From an uncultured Acetobacteraceae bacterium (GTDB lineage: Bacteria; Pseudomonadota; Alphaproteobacteria; Acetobacterales; Acetobacteraceae), in contig CAXTOB010000002.1 of NCBI GenBank assembly GCA_964245505.1, positions 1 through 55,633 of the forward strand: 55,633 nucleotides of DNA. Reading direction: 5' to 3'. How positions within the stretch are numbered: the first letter of the stretch is position 1; every line of letters begins with the position of its first letter. Of the stretch, positions 1 to 27,925 are shown in pieces. The position numbers and the translations under genes are program-made. The notes under the pieces are model-generated. The model made no database searches and was not told the DNA's origin. It was given only the letters and a program-made list of their open reading frames with translations.

Positions 1-44
1 GAAACTCAGGATACGTCTCCACTTGAACCGGACGTGCTCTAGGC
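1..44 (-). repeat. Window-truncated partial copy of the ~104-bp F2 intergenic repeat, reverse orientation
   Basis: Reverse complement of 1-44 (gcctagagcacgtccggttcaagtgg...) aligns with the 5' end of the copies at 46988 and 55404 (ctagagcatgttcggatcaaacgg...). Confidence 0.4.
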
Positions 45-117
45 CTGCCGCCGCGGTCGCATGGATGTAGGCGCCGGCTTGGACCTTATCTGCCTGCGAA
101 TCTTTCTTGTGGAATCT

Positions 118-282
118 TACCAAGGGCCCTTCACACTGACCCAGACGTGCCGAGCCGTCATTGCGAGCCGCGCTTGCGGCGCGGCAATCCAGAACCGCCG
201 GTACAGTCCTTGCCGCCGGGGGTTGCCGCGTCGCTGCGCTCCTTGCAATGACGAAAACGGTCAGAGCGAAGGGCATTTGATG
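118..282. repeat. Nested-palindrome intergenic element E1 (type I outer arms plus inner cattgcgag/ggcaatccag palindrome)
   Basis: Left arm taccaagggcccttcacactgaccc. Inner inverted repeat gtcattgcgag...ggcaatccag / gggttgcc...ccttgcaatgac. Right arm gaaaacggtcagagcgaagggcatttgatg. Related copies at 34952, 44339 and 55532. Confidence 0.7.
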
Positions 283-453
283 TGAACAAACGGGCTTTGC
301 TCTCGGGAGGGACCCCGTTTGGCGCATGTTCTCACCCCAACCGCGGTGACCCGATTTCCACACCCGTACCAACGCCCGTCATTCGGCCAAACCGCGCCGC
401 ACGTCAGTCACCATCGTCTAGGCCAGGACCGGTCCAAGCCAATCCCTGCCTCG

Positions 454-16137: not shown

Positions 16138-16932
16138 TTAGCGTCCTTTGAACACCGGCTTGCGCTTTTCGCTGAACGACAATACGCCCTCGCGGCGGTC
16201 CTCGGTCGGCACCATGCGGTTGTAGGCCTCGATCTCGAACAGCATCCCGTCCTCTAGGCTCATGGACAGGCCGTGGTGCATGGACCGCTTGGCCTGCCGG
16301 ATGGAGATCGGCGCGTTGCCGGCGATCACGGCCGCCGACGCCAGCGCCTCGTCCAGCAGCGCGCCGGGTTCGCACACCCGGTTGACCATACCCCAGCGCT
16401 CCGCATCCTCGGCCGACCAGGGCCGCCCACTCAGCAGCAGCTCCTTGGCCCGGCGCTCACCCACGGCGCGCGGCAGGGTCTGGGTGCCGCCCGCGCCGGG
16501 CATGATGCCGATGGTCACTTCCGGCAGGGCGAAGCGCACGGTGCCGGCGGCGTAGATGAAGTCGCAGGCCAAGGCCATCTCACACCCTCCGCCATAGGCC
16601 GCACCGTTCACCGCGGCGATCACCGGCACCGGGCAGGCAATCAGGGCCGCGGCCTTGCGCTCGAAGATGTGGTGCTGCGCCTGCCACTCCGCATCCGTCA
16701 TGCCGCGCCGCTGCTTCAGGTCGCCGCCAGCGCAGAACGCCCGGTCGCCCGCGCCCGTCAGCACCACGGCGCGGCAGGTGTCCGGATGGGCGCCGAGGGT
16801 CCCGAACACGTCGAGCATGTCCAGCCCCATCTGCGTGTTCATGGCATTCATCGCCGCCGGACGGTTCATCGTGACCAGCAGCACGTCCGGATGCGGCCGG
16901 GTCACCAGGAGGGTCTCGTACTCTGCCTGCAT
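16138..16932 (-). CDS. Enoyl-CoA hydratase/isomerase (crotonase family)
   Basis: Start at MQAEYETLLV (ATG 16932), 1 bp after the upstream stop. Crotonase signature AAVNGAAYGGGCEMALACDF. Confidence 0.9.
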   Translation of the reverse strand: MQAEYETLLVTRPHPDVLLVTMNRPAAMNAMNTQMGLDMLDVFGTLGAHPDTCRAVVLTGAGDRAFCAGGDLKQRRGMTDAEWQAQHHIFERKAAALIACPVPVIAAVNGAAYGGGCEMALACDFIYAAGTVRFALPEVTIGIMPGAGGTQTLPRAVGERRAKELLLSGRPWSAEDAERWGMVNRVCEPGALLDEALASAAVIAGNAPISIRQAKRSMHHGLSMSLEDGMLFEIEAYNRMVPTEDRREGVLSFSEKRKPVFKGR

Positions 16933-16933
16933 G

Positions 16934-18076
16934 CTACTGCGCCTTGTCCAGGAGGTCGTTGTGCTCGCCCAGGCGCGGCACCGGCCACTGCATCTCTGGC
17001 CGCGTCCCATCGAAGCTGACGGGAAGGCCGACCATGCGCAGCCCATCCGCCCGTTGCGCCTGCAATATGCCCAGCGCTTCCGTCTGGGGATGGGCCGCGA
17101 CCTGGGCGACATCCTGCAGCGGCGCGTTCGGGATGCCCAATGCGTCCAGCCGCGCCGCGAGCGCGTCCAGCACCTGGTGCCTCGTGGCCTCCTCGATCAT
17201 CGGCAGCAGCACCTCCCGGTGCGCCACCCGCCCGGCATTGGTGGTGAACCGCTCATCCGCCGCCCATTCCGGATGATCCAGCACCGTGCAGAGCTTGCGA
17301 TACAGCCCGTCATTGCCGGCCGCGATCATCAGCCAGCCATCCCGCGTTGGGAAGCACTGGTAAGGCACGATCTCCGCCACGCCGGAGCCGTAGGGCCGCC
17401 GCGTCTCGCCCGAGGCTCCATAGCTCGCCATGGGCAGGGTCAGCCAGCTCAGCGCCGTCTCATACAGGGAGGTGCTGATGCAGCCGCCGCGCTTGGTCTT
17501 CGCCCGTTCGATCAGGCTCGCCAGGATGCCGATGGTCGCCCACATGCCCGCACCCATGTCCACCAGCGAGGCGCCGGTGCGCACGGGCGGACGCCCGCCA
17601 CCCTCGCCGGTGATGCTCATCAGCCCGGCAAAGGCCTGCATCAATGGGTCATAACCGGGCTTGCTGGTCAGCGGCCCGGCCTCGCCGAAGGCGCCGATGT
17701 TGCAGACGATCAGCTCCGGCTTCTCCGCCAGCAGCCCGGCCGCACCCAACCCGGCCGCCTCGAACACCCCGGCCCGCAGGTTTTGAATGACGACGTCCGC
17801 CCGCTGCAGGATCAACTCCCGCAATGCCGCAACGGCGGCCGGGTCGCCGAAATCAACCGTCAGCCCCTTCTTGCCGCGATTATAGGCGTGGAAGGCGGAC
17901 GCCGTGCCCTCCCAGAATGGCGGCCCCCAGCTACGCGCGTGGTCGCCACCCCTGGGGTTCTCCACCTTCAACACTTCGGCGCCAAGTTCCGAGAAGATCA
18001 GGCCCGCAAACGGCGCGGCGATACTATGCCCAATCTCGATTACTAAGATTCCGCTGAGAGGCTTGGCGCTAGACAT
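16934..18076 (-). CDS. Family III CoA-transferase (CaiB/BaiF type)
   Basis: 380-aa ORF. ILVIEIGHSIAAPFAGLIFSELGAEVLKVE is a typical N-terminus. Paralogous to 10312-11592. Confidence 0.9.
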   Translation of the reverse strand: MSSAKPLSGILVIEIGHSIAAPFAGLIFSELGAEVLKVENPRGGDHARSWGPPFWEGTASAFHAYNRGKKGLTVDFGDPAAVAALRELILQRADVVIQNLRAGVFEAAGLGAAGLLAEKPELIVCNIGAFGEAGPLTSKPGYDPLMQAFAGLMSITGEGGGRPPVRTGASLVDMGAGMWATIGILASLIERAKTKRGGCISTSLYETALSWLTLPMASYGASGETRRPYGSGVAEIVPYQCFPTRDGWLMIAAGNDGLYRKLCTVLDHPEWAADERFTTNAGRVAHREVLLPMIEEATRHQVLDALAARLDALGIPNAPLQDVAQVAAHPQTEALGILQAQRADGLRMVGLPVSFDGTRPEMQWPVPRLGEHNDLLDKAQ

Positions 18077-18164
18077 GACTTTCTTTCTGCATATGATGCC
18101 TTATACTATGTAGATAGTTAGCCGGGGCAAGCAACGTTCCCTTTGCAGCAACGGAGGTCGTCCC

Positions 18165-19688
18165 ATGCCTGAACTGCTCCCCCGGGCCACGGCCCTTGCC
18201 GTCGTTGCCAGGCGCTTCGCGGACCGCATCGCAGTCACCGACCGTAGCGGCGCCGTCAGCTACGACGCCCTGTTCCGCCAAGCGGCCGGCCTGGCGCATG
18301 ACCTGGTCGCGGCCGGCGTGAAGCCCGGCGAGCCCGTCGCCAGCGTGGTGCGCAACAGCATCGCCGCCGTTTGGGCGGGCTATGGCATCGCACTGTCCGG
18401 GGCCGCGGACCTGGCGCTGAACCCGAACCTGAACGAGGCGGACCGTCGCCACTGCCTCGGCCTGGGTCGGGTCCGCCATGTCGTCACCACGAATGAGGAG
18501 GCCGGGTTCTTCGAGGGGCTCGGGCTCACGGTGCACCGGGTCGAGCAGGTCGAGGAGCGCCCGCTGGTCGCCGATGAGCTGCCGGCCACCAGCATGGAGG
18601 ATTGGGCCAGGGTCGGCTTCACCTCCGGCACCACGGGCCTGCCGAAGGGCATCGTCACCACGCAGCGCGGCCGCTGGATGGGCAACCTGCTGCAGCGCGC
18701 CACCATGCCGCACCGGCCGGGTCCCGATAGCCGGCTGCTGCTGATGACGCCGTTCTCCCACGGGGCAAGCCTGCTGACCTTCGCCTACATGGACGTCGGC
18801 GGCTCCGTGGTCCTGCTGGACGGAGTGGACACTGACCACGTCATCGGCCTGATCCGCCGGGGCGAGGTGGACGAGATGTTCGCGCCCCCCACCGTGCTGG
18901 CCAAGATCGTCGCCGCCGCAGAAGGAACTAGCTTGCCGGAGCTGAAGACGATCTACTGCGGCACCGCCGTGCTGTCGCCGCGCCTGTATGCCCGCGCCCG
19001 CGCCATCTTCGGCCCGGTCATCCGCATCACCTACGGCAAAACCGAGGTGGTCAATCCCATCACCGTGCTCGAAGCGCCGGAAACCGAAGCCTGGTACGCC
19101 GAGGGCGGCGAGCACGCCGATGCCTGCGTCGGCTGGCCCGCCAGCGGCGTGGAAATCACCATTGATGGACTGTCCGGCGCCGCGCCCGGCACGGTGGGAG
19201 AGGTCGGCATCCGTGCCCAGCAGATGATGGCAGGCACCATCCGGCCCGAGGGCTACGAACCGCTCCCGCCCGGCGGATTCCATGAGACCGGCGATCTCGG
19301 CTACTTCGACGACCGGGGCCGGCTGCACCTGACCGGGCGTGCCGCCGACGTCATCAAGTCCGGCGGCTACAAGGTCGCGCCCGAGGAGGTCGAGCGCGTG
19401 CTCAGCGCGGCGCTGGGCCAAGGCGAAGTGGCGGTGTTCGGGATCGACTCCGAATACTGGGGCCAGGTGATCGTCGCAGTGGCCGAGAACCCGGCGCCAG
19501 GTTGGGAAGCAGTGATCCGCGCCGCGATGGCCGGCATGACGCAGTACAAGCGGCCCCGCGCCCTGCTCGCGCTGCCGGAGCTGCCACGCAACGCCATGCT
19601 CAAGATCAGCCGCAAGGCCGTACGGGACCACGTGCTGGCCGGGCACCGCCTGGTTGACGGACCGCGGCCAGTGCTCGAACCGATATAG
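18165..19688 (+). CDS. AMP-dependent acyl-CoA synthetase/ligase
   Basis: 507 aa. AMP-binding motif FTSGTTGLPKG. Later motifs GDLGYFDDRGRL and SGGYKV. Confidence 0.85.
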   Translation: MPELLPRATALAVVARRFADRIAVTDRSGAVSYDALFRQAAGLAHDLVAAGVKPGEPVASVVRNSIAAVWAGYGIALSGAADLALNPNLNEADRRHCLGLGRVRHVVTTNEEAGFFEGLGLTVHRVEQVEERPLVADELPATSMEDWARVGFTSGTTGLPKGIVTTQRGRWMGNLLQRATMPHRPGPDSRLLLMTPFSHGASLLTFAYMDVGGSVVLLDGVDTDHVIGLIRRGEVDEMFAPPTVLAKIVAAAEGTSLPELKTIYCGTAVLSPRLYARARAIFGPVIRITYGKTEVVNPITVLEAPETEAWYAEGGEHADACVGWPASGVEITIDGLSGAAPGTVGEVGIRAQQMMAGTIRPEGYEPLPPGGFHETGDLGYFDDRGRLHLTGRAADVIKSGGYKVAPEEVERVLSAALGQGEVAVFGIDSEYWGQVIVAVAENPAPGWEAVIRAAMAGMTQYKRPRALLALPELPRNAMLKISRKAVRDHVLAGHRLVDGPRPVLEPI

Positions 19689-19692
19689 CGGT

Positions 19693-20976
19693 TCAGCCCG
19701 GCCCATAGACCAGGTTCGGCAGCCAGAGCGACAGTTCCGGCACGTAGGTGATGATCCCCAAGCAGATCAGCAGCAGCAGCAGAAAGGGGAAGATGCCCCG
19801 CACCACCTCCATGATCGGCGCGGCGGACACGGTGGCGAGCACGTAAAGGTTCAGGCCCACCGGTGGATGGATCAGCGCGATCTCCATGTTGTGGGTGAAC
19901 ACGATCGCGAAGTGCACGGGATCGACCCCCAGCGGATGCAGCGCAGGCGCCAGTATCGGCATCACCACCAGCAGGGTCGCCGCAACCTCCAGGAAGCAGC
20001 CCAGCACCAGCAGCAGCACGTTGATGGTCAGCAGGAACTGCCAGGGCCGCAGGTGGTGGTCCAGGGTGAACTGCACCAGCCTGCCCGGCACGCCGGAGTC
20101 CGTCATCCAGTGGCCGAAGGCGAGCGCGGTGGCGACGATGATCATGATGGTGGCGGCGCTCTTGATGGCGTCGGCAATCACGCCCAGCGTTTCCGACAGT
20201 CGGAAGCCCCGGTAGAACACCAGGCTGACCAGCAAGGCCGTTGTCGCGGCAACCGCCGCCGACTCCGTAACGGTCATCAACCCGCCGTAGATGCCCACCA
20301 TGACGATGATCGGCACGCATAGGGCCGGCAGCGCATGCAGCGTGTTGCGCAGGGTCTGGCCGTGCGGCACCGCGGGCTCCCGCGGCAGCTTGTAGCGATA
20401 GGCGTAGAACAGCACCCAGGCGAAGAAGGTGGTGGCCTGCAGCAAACCCGGCAGGATCCCGGCCAGGAACAGCCGCGGCACCGACTGCTCCGCGATCAGC
20501 CCATACAGGATCAACGACAGGCTGGGCGGGATGACGATGCCGATGGTGCCGGAGGCGCCGACCACGCCCAGGGCGAAGTGCCGGGGATAGCCGCGCTCGA
20601 TCATCGCCGGCACCAGGATCGTGCCCATCGCCAGCGCGGTCGCCACCGACGAGCCGCAGATCGCCGCGAACACGGTGCAGGACACCACCGTGACCAGGCC
20701 AAGCGCCCCGCGCATCTGCCCGAACCAGCCCGTGGCCACGTCCACCAGCGCCTTGGCCACCCCGCCCCGGCGCATGAACGCCGCCGCCATCACGAACAGC
20801 GGCAGCGCCATCAGCGTGCTGGAATTCAGCTCGTCAACGATCTTCTGCGCGATGGAAACCAGCGGCTGTCCCGTGGCCGCGAACAGCCCGGCGGCGCTGA
20901 TGCCAAGCACCAGGAAGATCGGCATCCCGGCCGCGAGCAGGCCGAAGAACGCCACCAGGAAAATGATGATGAGCAT
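19693..20976 (-). CDS. dctM: TRAP transporter large permease subunit
   Basis: Start at MLIIIFLVAFFG (ATG 20976). 427-aa polytopic membrane protein of the DctM family. Convergent with the ligase gene, with a 4-bp gap. Confidence 0.9.
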   Translation of the reverse strand: MLIIIFLVAFFGLLAAGMPIFLVLGISAAGLFAATGQPLVSIAQKIVDELNSSTLMALPLFVMAAAFMRRGGVAKALVDVATGWFGQMRGALGLVTVVSCTVFAAICGSSVATALAMGTILVPAMIERGYPRHFALGVVGASGTIGIVIPPSLSLILYGLIAEQSVPRLFLAGILPGLLQATTFFAWVLFYAYRYKLPREPAVPHGQTLRNTLHALPALCVPIIVMVGIYGGLMTVTESAAVAATTALLVSLVFYRGFRLSETLGVIADAIKSAATIMIIVATALAFGHWMTDSGVPGRLVQFTLDHHLRPWQFLLTINVLLLVLGCFLEVAATLLVVMPILAPALHPLGVDPVHFAIVFTHNMEIALIHPPVGLNLYVLATVSAAPIMEVVRGIFPFLLLLLICLGIITYVPELSLWLPNLVYGPG

Positions 20977-20987
20977 GCCGGGAGCCG

Positions 20988-21503
20988 TCAGTGGTCTGGT
21001 GTCGCGATGACCATGGTCGCCGGGTCGAAGCGGAAAACATAGCGGTAAAGGCGGATCACGTAGCGGACCAGCATCAGGAACCCGCCGGCCAGCACGGAGG
21101 CGTAATACAGCCACATCGGGAACTCGAGGCCGGTGATGCTGCGCTCATCGAGATCGAAGGAACTCTGCGCCACCTCGAAGCCGCAATAGACCAGCCCGGC
21201 ACAGAACAGGATCGCAACGCAGCAATTGAACGCCTCCACCCAACGCTGGGCCTGAGGAGACAGCAGACGCAGCACGATGTCCGGCCGCACGTGACCATCG
21301 GTCCGCACCAGCTGGCTGCTGGCGAGGAACACTGCCCAGACGGTGAGATAGACCACCACCTCGTCACCGTACTGGAAGGCGATCCGCTGATCGACGTAGC
21401 GTCCGATGACCTGGTAGGTGCCGATCGCGAGGGCCATGGCACCGAGAACGCCGATAAGGGCGCGCTCGGTGAAGTTCCACACGCGCATCAATGCCGCACC
21501 CAC
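20988..21503 (-). CDS. dctQ: TRAP transporter small permease subunit
   Basis: 171-aa ORF with four hydrophobic segments, located between the dctP and dctM genes. Start is either GTG 21503 or ATG 21488. Confidence 0.8.
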   Translation of the reverse strand: MGAALMRVWNFTERALIGVLGAMALAIGTYQVIGRYVDQRIAFQYGDEVVVYLTVWAVFLASSQLVRTDGHVRPDIVLRLLSPQAQRWVEAFNCCVAILFCAGLVYCGFEVAQSSFDLDERSITGLEFPMWLYYASVLAGGFLMLVRYVIRLYRYVFRFDPATMVIATPDH

Positions 21504-21516
21504 GGAAGCGAACCGC

Positions 21517-22530
21517 TCAACTGCCGTTGAGCGACTTGTCGCCGTTCACCTGCTTCAACAGGTCCGGGGTGATACGCAGCTCCTTGGCGGTGGCATCCTG
21601 CATCGGCATCATCTTGGTGCGGATGTCGGCAAGCTCGTTGGGCGGCGGCGAGTAGAAGGCGATCCCGTTCGCCTCCAGCGTCTTGCGCGCCTGGGTCTGC
21701 GCCGCTTCCATTCCGTTGCGGTAGGCGCCGATGTTGTCCGTCCACACCTTAACGACCAGCGCCTGCAGGTCCGGCGGCAGCTTATTGTAGAAGCTGTCGC
21801 TGATCATCGGGATGTAGAAGCCGATGAACTCGTGGTCCTCGAACCCGTACTTCACCCCGGAATCCCAAAGCTTGGCGCTGGCCAGGCTTTCATCCGTCGA
21901 GCTCAGCCCGTCGAACGTGCCCTGCGACAGGGCGAGGGGGACATCCGGCCAGGCCGTCATGTTCGGCTGGGCATTGAAGAACTTGGCCCGGATCGCCTGT
22001 CCGGCGCCGCCCGAGTTGCGTATCTTCATGCCCGCCATATCCCCAAAGCCGCGGATCGGCTTGCTGGTGCTGTAGGTGTTCTGGTAGCCGAGCGGCAACC
22101 AGGGGCCGAGCAGCTTGACCGAAAGCTTGGCCTGCAACTCGTCATCGATCGCCTTGCCGATGCCGCCGTCCACCGCGGCATAGACGACTTGCGCCGGCTG
22201 ACCGAAGAAGGTCGGCAGCTGGAACACATCGGTGTCCGGCACGAAGCCGGTCAGCACCCAGCTGCCGGGCACGGCCATCTCGATCCCACCCTGCCGCAGG
22301 GCCTTGACCACGTCCCGGTCGCGGAACAGCTGGCCGCTGCTGAACAGCTCGGTCTGGATGCGTCCACCCGACAGGTCCTGCAGCTTCTTCAGATAGTCCG
22401 CCACCGCGACGGTGCGGGCATGGCTGGGGGACGTATCGACGGAGGCCCGCAGCTTGAACGTGGTCTGCGCCGGGCTGGCTTGGCTGAACAAGAGGCATAC
22501 CGCGGCGACCACCGCAAAGGTCCATCGCAT
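21517..22530 (-). CDS. dctP: TRAP transporter substrate-binding protein
   Basis: Start at MRWTFAVVAAVCLLF (ATG 22530) after GAGGGAGGG. Signal peptide plus a DctP-type binding-protein sequence. Confidence 0.9.
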   Translation of the reverse strand: MRWTFAVVAAVCLLFSQASPAQTTFKLRASVDTSPSHARTVAVADYLKKLQDLSGGRIQTELFSSGQLFRDRDVVKALRQGGIEMAVPGSWVLTGFVPDTDVFQLPTFFGQPAQVVYAAVDGGIGKAIDDELQAKLSVKLLGPWLPLGYQNTYSTSKPIRGFGDMAGMKIRNSGGAGQAIRAKFFNAQPNMTAWPDVPLALSQGTFDGLSSTDESLASAKLWDSGVKYGFEDHEFIGFYIPMISDSFYNKLPPDLQALVVKVWTDNIGAYRNGMEAAQTQARKTLEANGIAFYSPPPNELADIRTKMMPMQDATAKELRITPDLLKQVNGDKSLNGS

Positions 22531-22916
22531 GGTCAAATCCCTCCCTCTTGCCGGTTCGTTGACCGAACATGGCGCACATACAGTTCTGGACCGCAGTCCG
22601 GCCAGGCATCTTGCCGTTCTGCGAATAAGCAATTCAATATCAGGAATGCCGTTCGCGTCAACGTTGATGGTCCCTCCATGGTGCATGGGTAGGGCCAGGC
22701 GCCCTGCCCGTCCGGCACCGGTGCGGGATCTCACCCCTGGTCGGGAAGAATAGCCGGACTCGCCGCGGATCATGCCGGGCTGCCCGGCCGATGTCGGCCG
22801 GACCGCAATCGAGGCCGGCGAACCCTACAAAGAGCCGCAGAACCTGATCGCCCCCAAGCTCGGCGTGCCCTAGCTTTCCAGGATGGTGAACATGGACCTT
22901 GAAAGGTGAGCCGGCG

Positions 22917-23864
22917 ATGTCCCCTCCATACGGACGCGTCCTGGTGCTCGGCAACGCCGGTATCGACCTGTCCATCCCCCTCCCCCGCCTGCCGCAGCCC
23001 GGCGAAACGCTTGTAGGCGGCGCCCTGCGGCGCGCGCCCGGCGGCAAGGGGCTGAACCAGGCGGTCATGGCCGCGCGTACCGGGATGGAGGTGCGGTTCT
23101 GCGCACCTCTCGGCAACGACGCTGACGGCCGCTATGTGGAGGACCGGCTGCGCGCCGAGCCATTCGCGGCGCTGTGCCTGCCGCGCCCTGGCCCGCCCAC
23201 TGACGTATCCCTGCTCCTGGTGGCAGCCGACAGCGAGAACTGCATCGTCACCTCCGGCGCCTGCGCCGACGCGCTGCCGGTCGCGGAGGCCGAAAGCTTC
23301 GCCGCGGGATGCCGGCCCGGCGATGTCCTGCTGCTGCAAGGCAACCTGAGCCAGGCTGCGACGGTCGCCGCAGCCCGCATGGGCCGGCTAGGTGGGGCAC
23401 GGGTGCTGCTGAACACCGCACCTTTGCGCTGGCCGGTACAGCCGCTCCTGACGGAGTGCTGGGGCGTGGTCGCCAATGCCGTCGAAGCCAGGGAGATCAC
23501 CGGCCAGCAGGGGAACGAGGCCGCTGCCAGCTTGGCCGCATTGGGACCACGGCTTGCGGTGGTGACGTTGGGAGCGGGAGGATGCGTAGCCGCACCAGGC
23601 GGCCACTACCCGGCCCCAGCCTTACGGCCGGGGGACGACACCGGCGAGCCGATGGACAACACCGGCGAGCCGGTGGGCAGCACCGCCGAGCCAGTGGACA
23701 GCACCGGCGCTGGCGACGCGTTCTGCGGCGTGCTGGCATCGGCACTGGCCCGCGGACTGGAGCCGCAGGACGCCATCGCAGCCGCGCAGCGTGCAGCAGC
23801 CCAGACCGTCCGCCGCCACGGCGCCTTCGAGGCGTTGCCCGCACGGTTCCACCTGGTGGGCTAA
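22917..23864 (+). CDS. PfkB/ribokinase family carbohydrate kinase
   Basis: N-terminal GNAGIDL...GGKGLNQA. C-terminal DSTGAGDAF anion-hole motif. ATG 22917 lies 7 nt after AGGTGA. The ORF track begins at TTG 22899. Confidence 0.8.
   Translation: MSPPYGRVLVLGNAGIDLSIPLPRLPQPGETLVGGALRRAPGGKGLNQAVMAARTGMEVRFCAPLGNDADGRYVEDRLRAEPFAALCLPRPGPPTDVSLLLVAADSENCIVTSGACADALPVAEAESFAAGCRPGDVLLLQGNLSQAATVAAARMGRLGGARVLLNTAPLRWPVQPLLTECWGVVANAVEAREITGQQGNEAAASLAALGPRLAVVTLGAGGCVAAPGGHYPAPALRPGDDTGEPMDNTGEPVGSTAEPVDSTGAGDAFCGVLASALARGLEPQDAIAAAQRAAAQTVRRHGAFEALPARFHLVG
23634..23717 (+). repeat. 4 x 21-bp in-frame tandem repeat ending in the PfkB GAGD motif
   Basis: gacgacaccggcgagccgatg / gacaacaccggcgagccggtg / ggcagcaccgccgagccagtg / gacagcaccggcgctggcgac. 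Encodes DDTGEPM-DNTGEPV-GSTAEPV-DSTGAGD. Confidence 0.85.
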
Positions 23865-24012
23865 CCCATCTCCCATCCCGGCCAGCGCCGCAGTTTCGCG
23901 GTCGCCGTTCGGCGCCTGGTCCCGATGTGCAAAGACAGGAGCAGATTGCCGCCGGGTCCGGACGCATCGCAACCGGACCTGACACTGCAAGTCCCTGCTT
24001 GCAAACAAAAAC

Positions 24013-24072
24013 CCAAGCAGCCTTGCGCGGCCTTTCACACAGATGGCCGGTGACCGTGCAAGCCTGCTTAGC
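24013..24072. repeat. F3 palindromic intergenic repeat, copy A
   Basis: ccaagcagccttgcgcgg...gtgcaagcctgcttagc. Arms are complementary, and a related copy lies at 48134-48193. Located between the convergent kinase genes. Confidence 0.5.
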
Positions 24073-24154
24073 TTTTTATCGGTGTGCAGAACCTCCAAAG
24101 GTTCGCCTCGACCTATTTACGTCCACTCAGGACGTAAGCAGGTCTAGTCCTAGC

Positions 24155-25222
24155 CTACTCCTCCTTGGAGGTCCGATTGGTGAAGCGGGCGTTGCCCAGC
24201 CCAGTGCCGATGGTCATCACGCCCCAGTGCTCCACGTCCCGCATGAACGGCGCCTCGCTCAAGCCCTGTACGACCGCGTCGTTATGCATCAGCACCACCG
24301 TCTCATGTCCGGCGATGGTGGGGATTGCCCGATGCAGAAGCTGCGGCACGTTGAAGCTTTCATGCTCCCAGTCGCCGGGCAGGTTCTGGCCGCCCTTGCA
24401 GATCGACCCATCCTCCCGGATCAAGCCCGGGCAGCCAACCCCGATGAACGGAGCCAGGCGCAAGCCCTGCTTATCAGCGCGCTTGATCGCCGACCGCAGC
24501 ATGCCGGCCATCCGTCCGACCGCGTCCTCCCGATCGGGATCATCATCTGCGTGACGCCACAGCTCGGACGCCGAGACCGTGCTCCGCGACAGGTCGGGCG
24601 CCTTGCGCAGATTGAGCTCGACAATCCCAACCCGGATGTTCGAGCCGCCGATGTCCACCGCCAGGATGCCGTCATGACCCGAAAACGCCCAGGACGGCAC
24701 CAGGTGGATGCACCCGATCAGGCCCGCCTCGTCCGGGTCGTGCCGGATCGGCGTCAACTGGATATCGTGCCCGGTGCCTTTCAAAATCACGGACGTCCGG
24801 CCGATGGCAAGCTCGCCGATGCGGCTATCCCGCAACCCTCCGCCGACAACGATCCGCTGGGTGCCCTGCCAGTCGTCCAGCCGCAGGAAACGGCTGATCA
24901 CGGTCGCGAACTCCTGGGCAAACTCCTCGATCGCGCCGAGAAGCACCCCGGCCGCCTCCGGGTCGCCGTCCAGCAGCAGGCGGTCGAGCTTCTTCTTGCT
25001 GATGTCCTTGCTGGGCACGTCCCCAACCGGATCGTCATCAATTTGGCTCACGCGCTCCCGCATGTCGTCCAGGATGGAGCGAAACGCCCGCCCGCTCGCA
25101 CGGTCGCCGATAAAGCCGGCTTCATCGCGCAGCTCGGCATTGTAGGTGTCGATGTGCACGGCGGCCAAACGCCCGGCGCCATGGCCGGCGAGGCTGGATA
25201 CCAATGGTTCAGCTTGGGTCAA
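24155..25222 (-). CDS. ROK/ASKHA-type sugar-kinase-like protein with an apparently permuted domain order
   Basis: AVDIGGSNIRVG (phosphate-1), GVGCPG, NDAVVQG and TIGTGLG lie in the C-terminal half. IVVGGGL and DEAGLIGC, normally C-terminal in this family, lie in the N-terminal half. The start (TTG 25222) is uncertain. Confidence 0.7.
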   Translation of the reverse strand: MTQAEPLVSSLAGHGAGRLAAVHIDTYNAELRDEAGFIGDRASGRAFRSILDDMRERVSQIDDDPVGDVPSKDISKKKLDRLLLDGDPEAAGVLLGAIEEFAQEFATVISRFLRLDDWQGTQRIVVGGGLRDSRIGELAIGRTSVILKGTGHDIQLTPIRHDPDEAGLIGCIHLVPSWAFSGHDGILAVDIGGSNIRVGIVELNLRKAPDLSRSTVSASELWRHADDDPDREDAVGRMAGMLRSAIKRADKQGLRLAPFIGVGCPGLIREDGSICKGGQNLPGDWEHESFNVPQLLHRAIPTIAGHETVVLMHNDAVVQGLSEAPFMRDVEHWGVMTIGTGLGNARFTNRTSKEE

Positions 25223-25458
25223 AAGGGTGCAACCATCTGCAAGGTGTTTCGGGGGGACTAGTCAGGTAGGCCGGTCAGTGGGCAACACTCCCTGGGCGGT
25301 CCAATGCGCCCGCGGGCTTCGCCGTATAGGATGACGAAGATTCGTGGGCCAAACCGGCGGGTTCCGCGATGTTGGATGGGAGCCCGGCTGGTCGCGGGTC
25401 CGGCGCGGTGGGCTTCATGCATCGCCCGCCACGTCCTTCACCGGAGCCGGTCCAGCCA

Positions 25459-26025
25459 TCATCCGGACTTGCACTGGCGTTGGCCGCATGTCGCAAGCTT
25501 CCAGACGCAGTTAAGTGCGGCGCGTGCCACGTCCGCGGCACGGCGCGGGAAGCAGGGCTCGGACCGCGTCAGGATGTCCGGCAAACCAGCGATGCAAGGC
25601 GGCCTGGCGCCATGGAGCAGCTCTCCCCTGCGCGGCCCCGGTATCGGCGCCATTACCAGCAGCGCGTCAAGCAGCGTGGGAAAACGCATCGTCAAGCCCA
25701 CGCAATCGATCAACTGGACTGCCGCGTCCAGGGCCTGGATCGCAAAGGCAGGCAACTGCTGCCCCGGCAGGTGGACCAGGATCAGCTCCCCGCCATGATC
25801 CCCATCCATGGCCACGGACACCCGGTATCCCCCTGGCCGTGCCAGGCTGGCCCAGCGCAGCGCAAGCTCGTGGTCCCCAATGGGAAAGGCACAGGCCTCG
25901 CGGCACGCCGCGCCGTAGCGCAGCGCCTTGCGGTAGCCGTCATGGGCATTGGGCTGCGTTATGGACAAGGGCTGCGTCACCAAAAGGCCAGGCCGGATCC
26001 GTGCAGTAGGACACCTCGGCCCCAT
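25459..26025 (-). CDS. Hypothetical protein (weak call)
   Basis: 188-aa ATG-initiated ORF with non-repetitive composition. No recognisable motif. Third-position GC does not clearly separate it from the other frames. Confidence 0.25.
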   Translation of the reverse strand: MGPRCPTARIRPGLLVTQPLSITQPNAHDGYRKALRYGAACREACAFPIGDHELALRWASLARPGGYRVSVAMDGDHGGELILVHLPGQQLPAFAIQALDAAVQLIDCVGLTMRFPTLLDALLVMAPIPGPRRGELLHGARPPCIAGLPDILTRSEPCFPRRAADVARAALNCVWKLATCGQRQCKSG

Positions 26026-26734
26026 ACCCGTCCAGGGCGCAGCGGACCGGCTGCGGCCAACACCGCCGGCCGGGTTCGCTCGGCCGGTTTCCTCTGCCGC
26101 GCTGTCATCAGGCGTCTTGGATCAAGGCCCGGCATCCCGTCACAGTCCCATGTGATAGTCGGAAGCATGCCCTCTCCGCGGGTGGCAGGCAAAGCTTCCG
26201 CCATGCCGGAGCCAGTATTCGGGTTGTCGCTTCGGAGCAGCGTTGCTGCCGGCACATCAGCGAGGTGGTCGTTAAGGGACAAGGGCAGCTCCTGATGCGG
26301 ACAGGGTCTTACGGCGTTGCTGGCCCGGCATGCGGGCAAGCCATGGCGCAGTGCGGCGCCAAGGGGAACCAGACGCGGCAGCGTGCCTGCCCACCGCCCT
26401 GATCCCACGAAAAGTTAAGGAAGCGCGAGTAAGCGTTCGATGTGCGGAGAAGCTTCGCGGCATAAACCCGTCATATACTCAAGCCGTGAAAACAGGGCCG
26501 CCCCCTGTGGCGCTGACCATCGTGGCGGTGACCGCAACGCCTCGCCGCGGTTCAGATTGCGCCGCAGGCACGCAAGACAGGTCAGCCCGGCCTCCCGAAA
26601 AGCACACAATCTCGATGCGTGTTGGAACGGACGCACTCGGCCCCATTCTCCTGAGATGTCAACCAGTCCCAGACAGGCCCGATCAACTGTTGAAGTTGGC
26701 ACGGGATCAGCCTGCTCCCAGCCGTCCTAGCGTG

Positions 26735-27925
26735 ATGATCCAATCCCTCGCCGTCATTCTCGCGCTGATCCTGCTGGCCGTCACCCTGCAAGACGCCTTC
26801 GAGGTCATGCTGCTGCCGCGCCGGATCAACCGGCGGTTCCGGTTCATGCGGGTGTACTTCAGAGCATGCTGGGCGGTATGGGGCGCCCTTGCCCGGCATA
26901 TCAAGAATCCCCCGCGGCAGGAGCATGTGCTGAGCCTGTTCGGCCCCCTATCCATGCTGCTGCTGTTCGCGCTCTGGGCCGGCACGCTGATCGGCGGCTT
27001 CGGCCTGCTGGAATGGGCGCTGCAGGGTTCCAACGCCTCCCCGCTGATGGAACAGGCCTACATGAGCGGCGTGACCTTCTTCACCTTGGGCTATGGCGAC
27101 GTGGTCCCGCACACCGGCGCCGCCCGGCTCATGGCGGTGCTGGAGGCGGGGACCGGCATCGGCTTCATCGCCGTCGTGATCGGCTACCTGCCGGTGCTCT
27201 ACCAGCTATTCTCCCGGCGCGAGGCGCACGTGATCCAGTTGGACGCACGCGCCGGGTCGCCGCCCACAGCCGTTGCCATGCTGTGCCGCCATGCCGACGG
27301 CGGCGGCATGGACAAGGTGGACCCGCTGCTGCGCGAATGGGAGGTGTGGGGGTCGGAGCTGCTGGAAAGCCACCTGTCCTACCCGATGCTGGCCTACTAC
27401 CGGTCCCAGCACGACAACCAGAGTTGGCTGGCCGCCCTGGCGGTGATGATGGACGTTTGCGCAATGATTTTGGTGGGGATGGAGACGATCCCGCCCTTCC
27501 AGGCCCGCATGACCTTCAGCATGACCCGGCAGGTCCTGGTCGAGATGGCGGGATCCTTCCTGATCGAGCCTAGCCGCTACGACAACAAGGACCGGCTGCC
27601 GCTCGAAGTCTGGCACCGCATAATGGTGGAGTTCGCTGAGGCGGGCGTCGCTTGGACCGACAACCCCAGCACCCGTGACACCCTGGCCGCATTGCGCGCG
27701 ACCTACGAGCCGCTGTTGGACGGCTTGTCCCGCCGGCTGCTGCTGCCCCTGCCGGGCTGGATGCCCGAAGACAGGGTGGTGGATCATTGGGCGCGGGGCC
27801 ATCGCGGCCTGATCGCGTCCCGGCTGATAGAGGGGCTGACCGACCGGTCCGACCCCAAGCTGGTCCCGGCGGGACGGAGTGGGCCACTGTGGCGGCGGCT
27901 GCGGCAGAGCCTGCGAGAGGACTGA
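26735..27925 (+). CDS. Potassium channel family protein (2TM/P-loop) with a ~250-aa uncharacterised C-terminal region
   Basis: Selectivity filter TLGYGD flanked by hydrophobic helices. Start set at MIQSLAVILAL (ATG 26735). The ORF track begins at 26330. Confidence 0.8.
   Translation: MIQSLAVILALILLAVTLQDAFEVMLLPRRINRRFRFMRVYFRACWAVWGALARHIKNPPRQEHVLSLFGPLSMLLLFALWAGTLIGGFGLLEWALQGSNASPLMEQAYMSGVTFFTLGYGDVVPHTGAARLMAVLEAGTGIGFIAVVIGYLPVLYQLFSRREAHVIQLDARAGSPPTAVAMLCRHADGGGMDKVDPLLREWEVWGSELLESHLSYPMLAYYRSQHDNQSWLAALAVMMDVCAMILVGMETIPPFQARMTFSMTRQVLVEMAGSFLIEPSRYDNKDRLPLEVWHRIMVEFAEAGVAWTDNPSTRDTLAALRATYEPLLDGLSRRLLLPLPGWMPEDRVVDHWARGHRGLIASRLIEGLTDRSDPKLVPAGRSGPLWRRLRQSLRED

Follow-up and report, generated by a model that had tools for sequence, protein, structure and literature searches.

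An open reading frame of an uncultured Acetobacteraceae bacterium very probably encodes a circularly permuted ROK-type kinase

The DNA examined here is a stretch of 55,633 nucleotides from an uncultured Acetobacteraceae bacterium (contig CAXTOB010000002.1; hereafter the window), and its element of interest is an open reading frame (ORF) on the minus strand at 24155–25222, which has a TTG start and encodes 355 amino acids followed by a stop codon. We conclude that the product is very probably a circularly permuted kinase of the ROK type. In a canonical ROK protein the small domain, carrying the phosphate-1 motif and the sugar-binding Asn-Asp pair, precedes a large domain that holds, in turn, phosphate-2, the GEiGH and zinc motifs, the adenosine motif and the last helix. 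The order along the present chain is domain II from strand β3 to its end, a linker, domain I and lastly strands β1–β2 of domain II; the canonical order is not found. The initial annotation, made from the letters alone and naming no strand, had proposed a circular permutation from the order of seven motifs, and in our translation each of the seven lies exactly at the residues it gave (Table 1), with the chain ending, as it said, 12 residues past the last of them. Family profiles, an AlphaFold2 model and the conserved order of the two halves all support that proposal, and we hold with high confidence that the permutation is real. That the permuted protein works as a kinase is the case we favour, with more reserve, from its conserved residues.

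Searched as a single sequence, the protein matches the Pfam ROK model (PF00480) over residues 187–349, which align with profile positions 2–141 of 294 (25.0 bits against a gathering score of 22.9; E = 1.6e-5). The same model is matched at E ≤0.01 by 23 of 35 diverse family members, and of the NCBIfam models for polyphosphate glucokinase, ROK glucokinase and allose kinase only the N-terminal halves are matched by the 355-residue protein. The part of the chain that gives these matches is its C-terminal half (C-half), which also matches the PDB chains of hMNK, BglK and PPGMK. One PDB chain, 4htl_A, aligned with the family profile in three non-collinear pieces, profile positions 185–205 falling on chain positions 5–25, 260–350 on 60–143 and 123–173 on 240–287. 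We exchanged the halves in silico, cutting after residue 180 and placing the C-half before the N-terminal half (N-half). With the re-permuted profile, the match to 5nck_A (NanK) went from E = 0.0054 in native order to 6.8e-7, in two collinear stretches, and the native N-half, with its GD..A helix, ivlGGG and AGliGA, fell on chain positions 181–286; the alignments behind this gain differ in depth (native A1, 35 sequences; re-permuted A2, 27), so the comparison is not perfectly controlled. Re-permuting the single sequence extended the Pfam ROK stretch to positions 2–248 with hardly any gain in score (25.3 against 25.0 bits), and the comparison needed family profiles.

We compared the family with ROK proteins by hhalign, using an identical set of 35 family rows throughout. 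Since a search of the 80 fetched loci and the window gave no canonical ROK gene, the six E. coli K-12 paralogues NagK, NanK, Mak, AlsK, NagC and Mlc served as the reference. The C-half alone aligned with columns 86–242 of the ROK profile (152 columns aligned; E = 2.4e-10; score 74.9) and the N-half alone with columns 261–383 (119 aligned; E = 1.7e-4; score 36.5), whereas a control with the N-half columns reversed found only columns 117–135 (19 aligned; E = 0.46; score 13.5). In native order the best match covered columns 87–242 (154 aligned; E = 1.7e-9; score 75.6). After exchange of the halves, a single alignment of 289 columns spanned columns 86–383 (E = 6.4e-13; score 99.1). A collinear match over the whole ROK domain thus failed in native order, where the profiles aligned in two pieces, and was achieved only after the exchange, which bears out the non-collinearity anticipated in the initial annotation. 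In one family member, P0138, the N-half matches Pfam ROK positions 178–292 directly (E = 4e-4).

AlphaFold2, run from the 35-sequence alignment, returned a single compact two-domain unit (mean predicted local distance difference test (pLDDT) score 92.9; predicted template modelling score (pTM) 0.91), the complete fold that the permutation proposal had called for. Read from residue 185, with b for strand and a for helix, the order of elements is bbbababa (185–321), bb (E332–338 and E342–349), the chain end and start, then b, helices and b-a-b-a; the N-terminal part comprises E22–27, helices 44–59, 76–85 and 88–113, E123–128 (IVVGGG), H134–149, E155–158 and H163–173. In the model these N-terminal elements appear to be exactly the remainder of the ASKHA large domain, and its second sheet would join E332–338 and E342–349 with E22–27, E123–128 and E155–158, such that a circular reading from residue 185 is predicted to follow the ASKHA secondary-structure pattern. 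Residues 174–184 lie between helix H163–173 and small-domain strand β1 (E185–191) in the model, and fall outside both hhalign half-alignments.

A Foldseek search of this model against the PDB returned only ASKHA proteins, the top matches with probability 1.00. The ROK kinases 2yhy, 2yhw, 4htl, 5nck and 3vov superposed at 2.1–4.4 Å over ~166–169 columns, with query TM-scores (TMq) of 0.29–0.38, so that the fits extend over half of the chain; no PDB chain exceeded a TMq of 0.38. Alignments of at least 300 columns, as with Ppx (3cer) and glucokinase (3id8), had a root-mean-square deviation (rmsd) of 9–12 Å. Half-chain fits together with long alignments of high rmsd are the behaviour of a sequential aligner on a permutant, and it appears from the model that no solved structure has the same chain topology.

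The residue map from hhalign locates the new termini. The native C-terminus lies just past large-domain strand β2, where ROK 'GtGiGgGii.nG' is aligned with the family's 'GTGLGNARFTNR', and the native N-terminus lies just ahead of the equivalent of ROK 'GEiGH', which in the family reads 'HGAxxLP'. Residue conservation and motif counts were computed over 152 family sequences, in which H14 of this element is 90% conserved. ROK signature 1 of PROSITE, which we take to be [LIVM]-x2-G-[LIVMFCT]-G-x-[GA]-[LIVMFA]-x8-G-x3-5-[GATP]-x2-G-[RKH], matched five of the six E. coli ROK proteins and none of the 152 permuted members. In 144 of the 152, its start (MTIGTGLG, 336–343 here) is near the C-terminus, at a median distance of 12 residues; for the equivalent of its G-H (H14-G15 here), the median distance to the N-terminus is 15. 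With the parts of the signature at opposite chain ends, the breakpoint cuts it in the β2/β3 hairpin. The family's GF(I/V)GDRAS aligns at ROK GC(L/I)E..S, and the zinc ligands are consequently gone: as the initial annotation had noted, the CxCGxxGC motif is absent from this protein, and neither it nor the longer form CxCGxxGC(x)E occurs in any of the 152 members, whose first 60 residues contain a median of 0 cysteines.

The permuted arrangement is widespread. A word-indexed search gave at least 8000 homologue clusters at 90% identity, of which the best 120 are all ~355 aa long and 69–94% identical to the query at 91–100% coverage, and an HMMER scan of 1.84 billion representatives (50% identity clusters) gave 1317 clusters at E ≤1e-3 and 212 at ≤1e-30. 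Counting one genome per species, relatives occur in at least 595 species of several phyla, including several complete chromosomes, with hosts among the Acetobacteraceae, other Rhodospirillales, Hyphomicrobiales (Rhodoplanes, Methylobacterium, Alsobacter), Steroidobacteraceae, Myxococcota, Gemmatimonas and Bryobacteraceae. The window protein is 95% identical to that of an Acetobacteraceae metagenome-assembled genome. All members of the 35-sequence alignment, which reaches down to 37% identity, have the identical order and end just past GTGLGNAxFxNR, and among 270 retrieved homologues the N-half precedes the C-half in all 212 proteins that have both, a regularity that answers the concern, raised with the first proposal, that the ORF might be two truncated gene fragments. 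A breakpoint so uniform speaks for one origin of the permutation. Most likely a ROK gene was once duplicated in tandem or fused and both ends were then trimmed, a plausible route that the initial annotation had raised in similar form. Several metagenomic homologues (P0165, P0204 and P0146) seem to be C-half-first or to carry extensions of 150–280 aa. We rejected them as canonical-order intermediates, for which they could be mistaken, their tails being low-complexity and frameshift-like, not domains.

The active site is well preserved. Conservation is 97% for D190 and G192 and 95% for G193 in phosphate-1, 100% for the Arg of NIRVG (R197), and 97%, 94% and 98% for G339, G341 and G343 in phosphate-2; G127–G129 of the adenosine motif reach 97–99%. 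All three ASKHA loops, phosphate-2 with T340 included, are present and 91–99% conserved. The predicted sugar-binding pair with the catalytic base comprises N314 (97%) and D315 (95%), within an H313-N314-D315 triplet at 95–97%, and is followed by the predicted sugar-binding Glu E323 (92%); N314, D315 and E323 align with the ROK NDAN...E segment in the hhalign map. On the N-half, D40 (93%) and H14 (90%) align with ROK sugar ligands. Such strong conservation (90–100%) of ATP-binding and catalytic residues makes an active kinase probable, and from these residues we infer a phosphotransferase of ROK mechanism whose specificity loop is altered. With no winged helix-turn-helix domain, it is not a repressor-type ROK. 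The equivalog cutoff of the polyphosphate glucokinase (PPGK) model NF045942 (250 bits) was missed, at 24.3 bits.

We propose the following mechanism. The chain starts at large-domain strand β3 and continues to the last helix of that domain, from which an 11-residue linker leads to small-domain strand β1; it then crosses the whole small domain and finishes with the phosphate-2 strands β1–β2 of the large domain. Both chain ends would hence contribute to the five-stranded large-domain sheet. The interdomain cleft would hold, through N314, D315, E323, D40 and H14, a substrate with a hydroxyl group, most likely a sugar or polyol; Asp315 would serve as the base, and the phosphate-1, phosphate-2 and adenosine loops would grip ATP (or possibly polyphosphate). 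In place of the zinc-stabilised specificity loop of ROK there would be a cysteine-free hairpin beside the new termini, and substrate specificity has probably changed.

Some divergent members occur in settings of their own. P0239 (L087:1012–2820) and P0147 (L089:6001–7749) carry an N-terminal domain of the inositol-monophosphatase family: P0239 matches Pfam Inositol_P (E = 2e-32), and the N-terminus of P0147 is homologous to that of P0239 (BLASTP E = 7e-14). The permuted kinase part of P0239 has a truncated N-half. Judged by their domains, both are possible bifunctional kinase/phosphatases. The distant member P0143 (~40% identity; L088:1613–2719) lies 14 bp downstream of a same-strand canonical glucokinase (PF02685, 655–1599), an adjacency that is absent from all 80 genome loci and from the window, and this placement speaks against a plain glucokinase redundancy.

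We consider it unlikely that the fold is permuted but has no kinase function, the protein serving instead to sense a ligand or as a partner in regulation, or acting as a Ppx/GppA-type phosphatase or nucleotidase. The ROK family does have non-catalytic members, its repressors sensing sugars, but the present protein has no DNA-binding domain. The Ppx/GppA phosphatases 3cer and 6pbz are among the Foldseek matches, although these matches are long and of high rmsd (~9 Å), and the best sequence matches are ROK kinases. A second glucokinase beside the canonical one upstream of P0143 would be redundant, and one subfamily is fused to an inositol-monophosphatase-like domain; both fit a non-kinase role. 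Against them stands the conservation of Asp315, of the three nucleotide loops and of R197, at 94–100% down to 37% identity, as expected of a phosphotransferase that is active.

Returning to the permuted ROK-type kinase, several observations weigh against it. First, the N-half alone had no match in a single-sequence Pfam search, its hhalign probability (49.5%) indicates moderate homology, and its HMMER stretches are individually weak (i-Evalues of 9 to 500). Second, the gain with 5nck_A comes from the alignments of unequal depth described above, and the three-dimensional claim draws on AlphaFold2 confidence, the order of secondary-structure elements and Foldseek half-matches. Third, no canonical-order or tandem intermediate was found among the 270 homologues; with neither an intermediate nor a canonical-order close relative, the route of origin is one that we infer. 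Lastly, the gene neighbourhood is not conserved, so context allows no functional inference.

The first of these points would also suit a ROK small domain (185–349) fused to an unrelated N-terminal α/β domain that resembles ROK only through short glycine-rich motifs, since residues 1–185 have no family in single-sequence Pfam searches and the N-half signals are as modest as just described. We find this quite improbable. The 119 N-half columns align in the right order at an E far below that of the reversed control, their collinear addition lifts the score from 75 to 99, and P0138 matches the C-terminal part of Pfam ROK directly. The C-half has only two of the five large-domain strands, whereas the N-half adds β3, β4 and β5 as beta, helices, beta, alpha, beta, alpha, and the pTM points to one compact unit. 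That the ORF is an artefact (two truncated fragments, a pseudogene, or the product of misassembly or of a local rearrangement) can be dismissed despite the unusual motif order and the frameshift-like low-complexity tails of P0165, P0204 and P0146, because the same 355-aa architecture and breakpoints recur in at least 595 species representatives, complete chromosomes included, with the same half order in 212 of 212 proteins, strong residue conservation and a confidently predicted single fold.

Of the known relatives, ROK kinases (PF00480; the N-acetylmannosamine kinases 2yhw, 2yhy and 5nck; BglK, 4htl; E. coli NagK, NanK, Mak and AlsK) are the best sequence and structure matches. They share with the permuted protein the ASKHA two-domain fold, phosphate-1 as DxGG(T/S)N.R, GxxxPG, the N-D pair with the catalytic base, the E after NDA..gl.E, GTGxG, the GD..A helix, ivlGGG and the terminal AGl.GA helix. 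Unlike them, the protein has a permuted chain with its termini in the β2/β3 hairpin and the old termini joined by the 11-residue linker; the signature is split over both chain ends, the intact signature and the zinc motif are each absent (0/152), and only half of the Pfam profile is collinear. PPGK (NF045942; 1woq), a ROK-related kinase lineage, gave the top NCBIfam match (E = 2.3e-5; 1woq, E = 2e-5). PPGK members are likewise not known to have a cysteine zinc motif, but they are ~250–270 aa long and in canonical N-to-C order, and only profile positions 3–142 of 242 align. Hexokinases and eukaryotic glucokinases (PF00349; 1ig8, 3id8) are ASKHA sugar kinases with a nearly identical phosphate-1 hairpin, LA(V/I)D(I/L)GG(S/T)N(I/F)RV, but are of canonical order and much larger; their matches cover ~30–60 residues, and full-length Foldseek superpositions have an rmsd of 8–12 Å. 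By lineage the protein descends from ROK sugar kinases, yet it has neither the zinc motif nor signature 1, and its domain is not collinear with theirs.

No dedicated model for this family exists in Pfam-A (2025) or NCBIfam r20, and public entries are named 'ROK family protein', 'predicted NBD/HSP70 family sugar kinase' or 'hypothetical protein'. A search of full-text literature, of incomplete coverage, found no description of a permuted ROK, ASKHA, sugar kinase, hexokinase or actin-fold protein, and we know of no permuted ROK/ASKHA protein. This agrees with the initial annotation, whose author was aware of no such permutation for the fold, a statement that by its nature is not provable.

Table 1. 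Features of the 355-residue protein and their positions in the window
Feature	Residues	Window position	Strand	Basis or remark
Whole ORF, probable circularly permuted ROK-like ASKHA protein	1–355	24155–25222	−	Full-length homologues of ~355 aa
Variable low-confidence N-terminal tail (new N-terminus)	1–12	25187–25222	−	Variable in alignment; mean AlphaFold2 pLDDT 46 for residues 1–10; true start could be either of two TTG codons, 1 or 7
ROK large (C-terminal) domain equivalent, strand β3 to last helix	13–173	24704–25186	−	hhalign, AlphaFold2 secondary structure
HGA, ROK GEiGH equivalent	13–16		−	Residue map
GFIGDRAS, ROK GC[LI]E..S equivalent without Cys	36–43		−	Residue map
GDPEAAG helix	86–113		−	
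Motif GDPEAAGVLLGAIEEFAQEF	86–105		−	
Adenosine motif IVVGGGL	124–130		−	
Motif DEAGLIGC	164–171		−	
LVPSWAFSGHD, linker between canonical ROK C- and N-termini	174–184	24671–24703	−	AlphaFold2, hhalign
Small domain	185–321	24260–24670	−	Pfam ROK, NCBIfam, hhalign, AlphaFold2, conservation 95–100%
Phosphate-1 AVDIGGSNIRVG	188–199		−	
Motif GVGCPG	261–266		−	
Motif NLPGDWE	280–286		−	
HNDAVVQGLSE, with predicted sugar-binding Asn314 and predicted catalytic base Asp315	313–323		−	
Motif NDAVVQG	314–320		−	
Connector and large-domain strands β1 and β2	322–349	24176–24259	−	E332–338, E342–349
Phosphate-2 MTIGTGLGN	336–344		−	
Motif TIGTGLG	337–343		−	Stop codon 12 residues after
RTSKEE and stop, short variable C-terminal tail (new C-terminus)	350–355	24155–24175	−	pLDDT ~55

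The neighbours of the gene in the window are a convergent PfkB-family kinase gene (22899–23864) and a divergent ion-channel-like gene (26330–27925). Clustering of 3747 ORFs from 81 loci revealed lineage-specific synteny only, with a 2-hydroxyacid dehydrogenase upstream in 18 of these loci and CoxLMS-like genes downstream in 13. The PfkB neighbour is common to the window and its closest relative, L001, only, and six contigs of distant members have unrelated neighbours. Promoter, terminator and Rfam scans of 23800–26400 gave nothing informative. Between the start of the permuted gene and the ion-channel-like gene lies a segment of ~880 bp (~25290–26170), which is present in the window and in L001 (85% identity) and missing in L002, where the two genes abut. 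ORFs inside the segment have no Pfam match and the segment no Rfam match; an insertion and a small gene peculiar to the lineage are both possible readings.

Within the PfkB kinase gene, 23634–23711 on the plus strand encodes a short, imperfectly repeated peptide, DDTGEPMDNTGEPVGSTAEPVDST, directly ahead of the GAGDAF catalytic motif, which looks like a small in-frame tandem expansion. Next to this gene, the region 16138–22773 holds the TRAP transporter genes DctP (21517–22773) and DctM (19693–21114), followed by a family III CoA-transferase (16934–18076) and an enoyl-CoA hydratase (16138–17112). In other genomes the permuted kinase has no conserved association with this cluster, an ordinary one for organic-acid catabolism.

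The ASKHA fold, shared by hexokinase, actin, Hsp70 and ROK, is among the most studied, and its catalysis needs hinge closure, with the two domains in a fixed order. Hundreds of species keep such a permutant, which shows that rewiring through the large-domain sheet is tolerated; the permutant offers a natural system in which to ask how connectivity affects domain closure, folding and specificity. A bolder reading, to which we give a little less than even weight, is that this is the first natural ASKHA/ROK permutation, a single ancient rearrangement that set the termini by the sugar-specificity loop and replaced the zinc site, and that it gave rise to a widespread family of active kinases with a non-ROK substrate, which could be of the inositol or polyol type, since an inositol-monophosphatase-like domain is recurrently fused to the kinase. 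A half-length hidden Markov model match is all that underlies the names of thousands of database entries, given only as 'ROK family protein' or 'hypothetical', and domain-based pipelines will mis-model the family; a dedicated family model is therefore warranted. The significance lies in structural and evolutionary enzymology, without a change of paradigm. Having neither the zinc specificity loop of ROK nor a conserved operon partner, the family may have a substrate that defines a new kinase activity, in Alpha- and Gammaproteobacteria of soil, in Myxococcota and in other groups.

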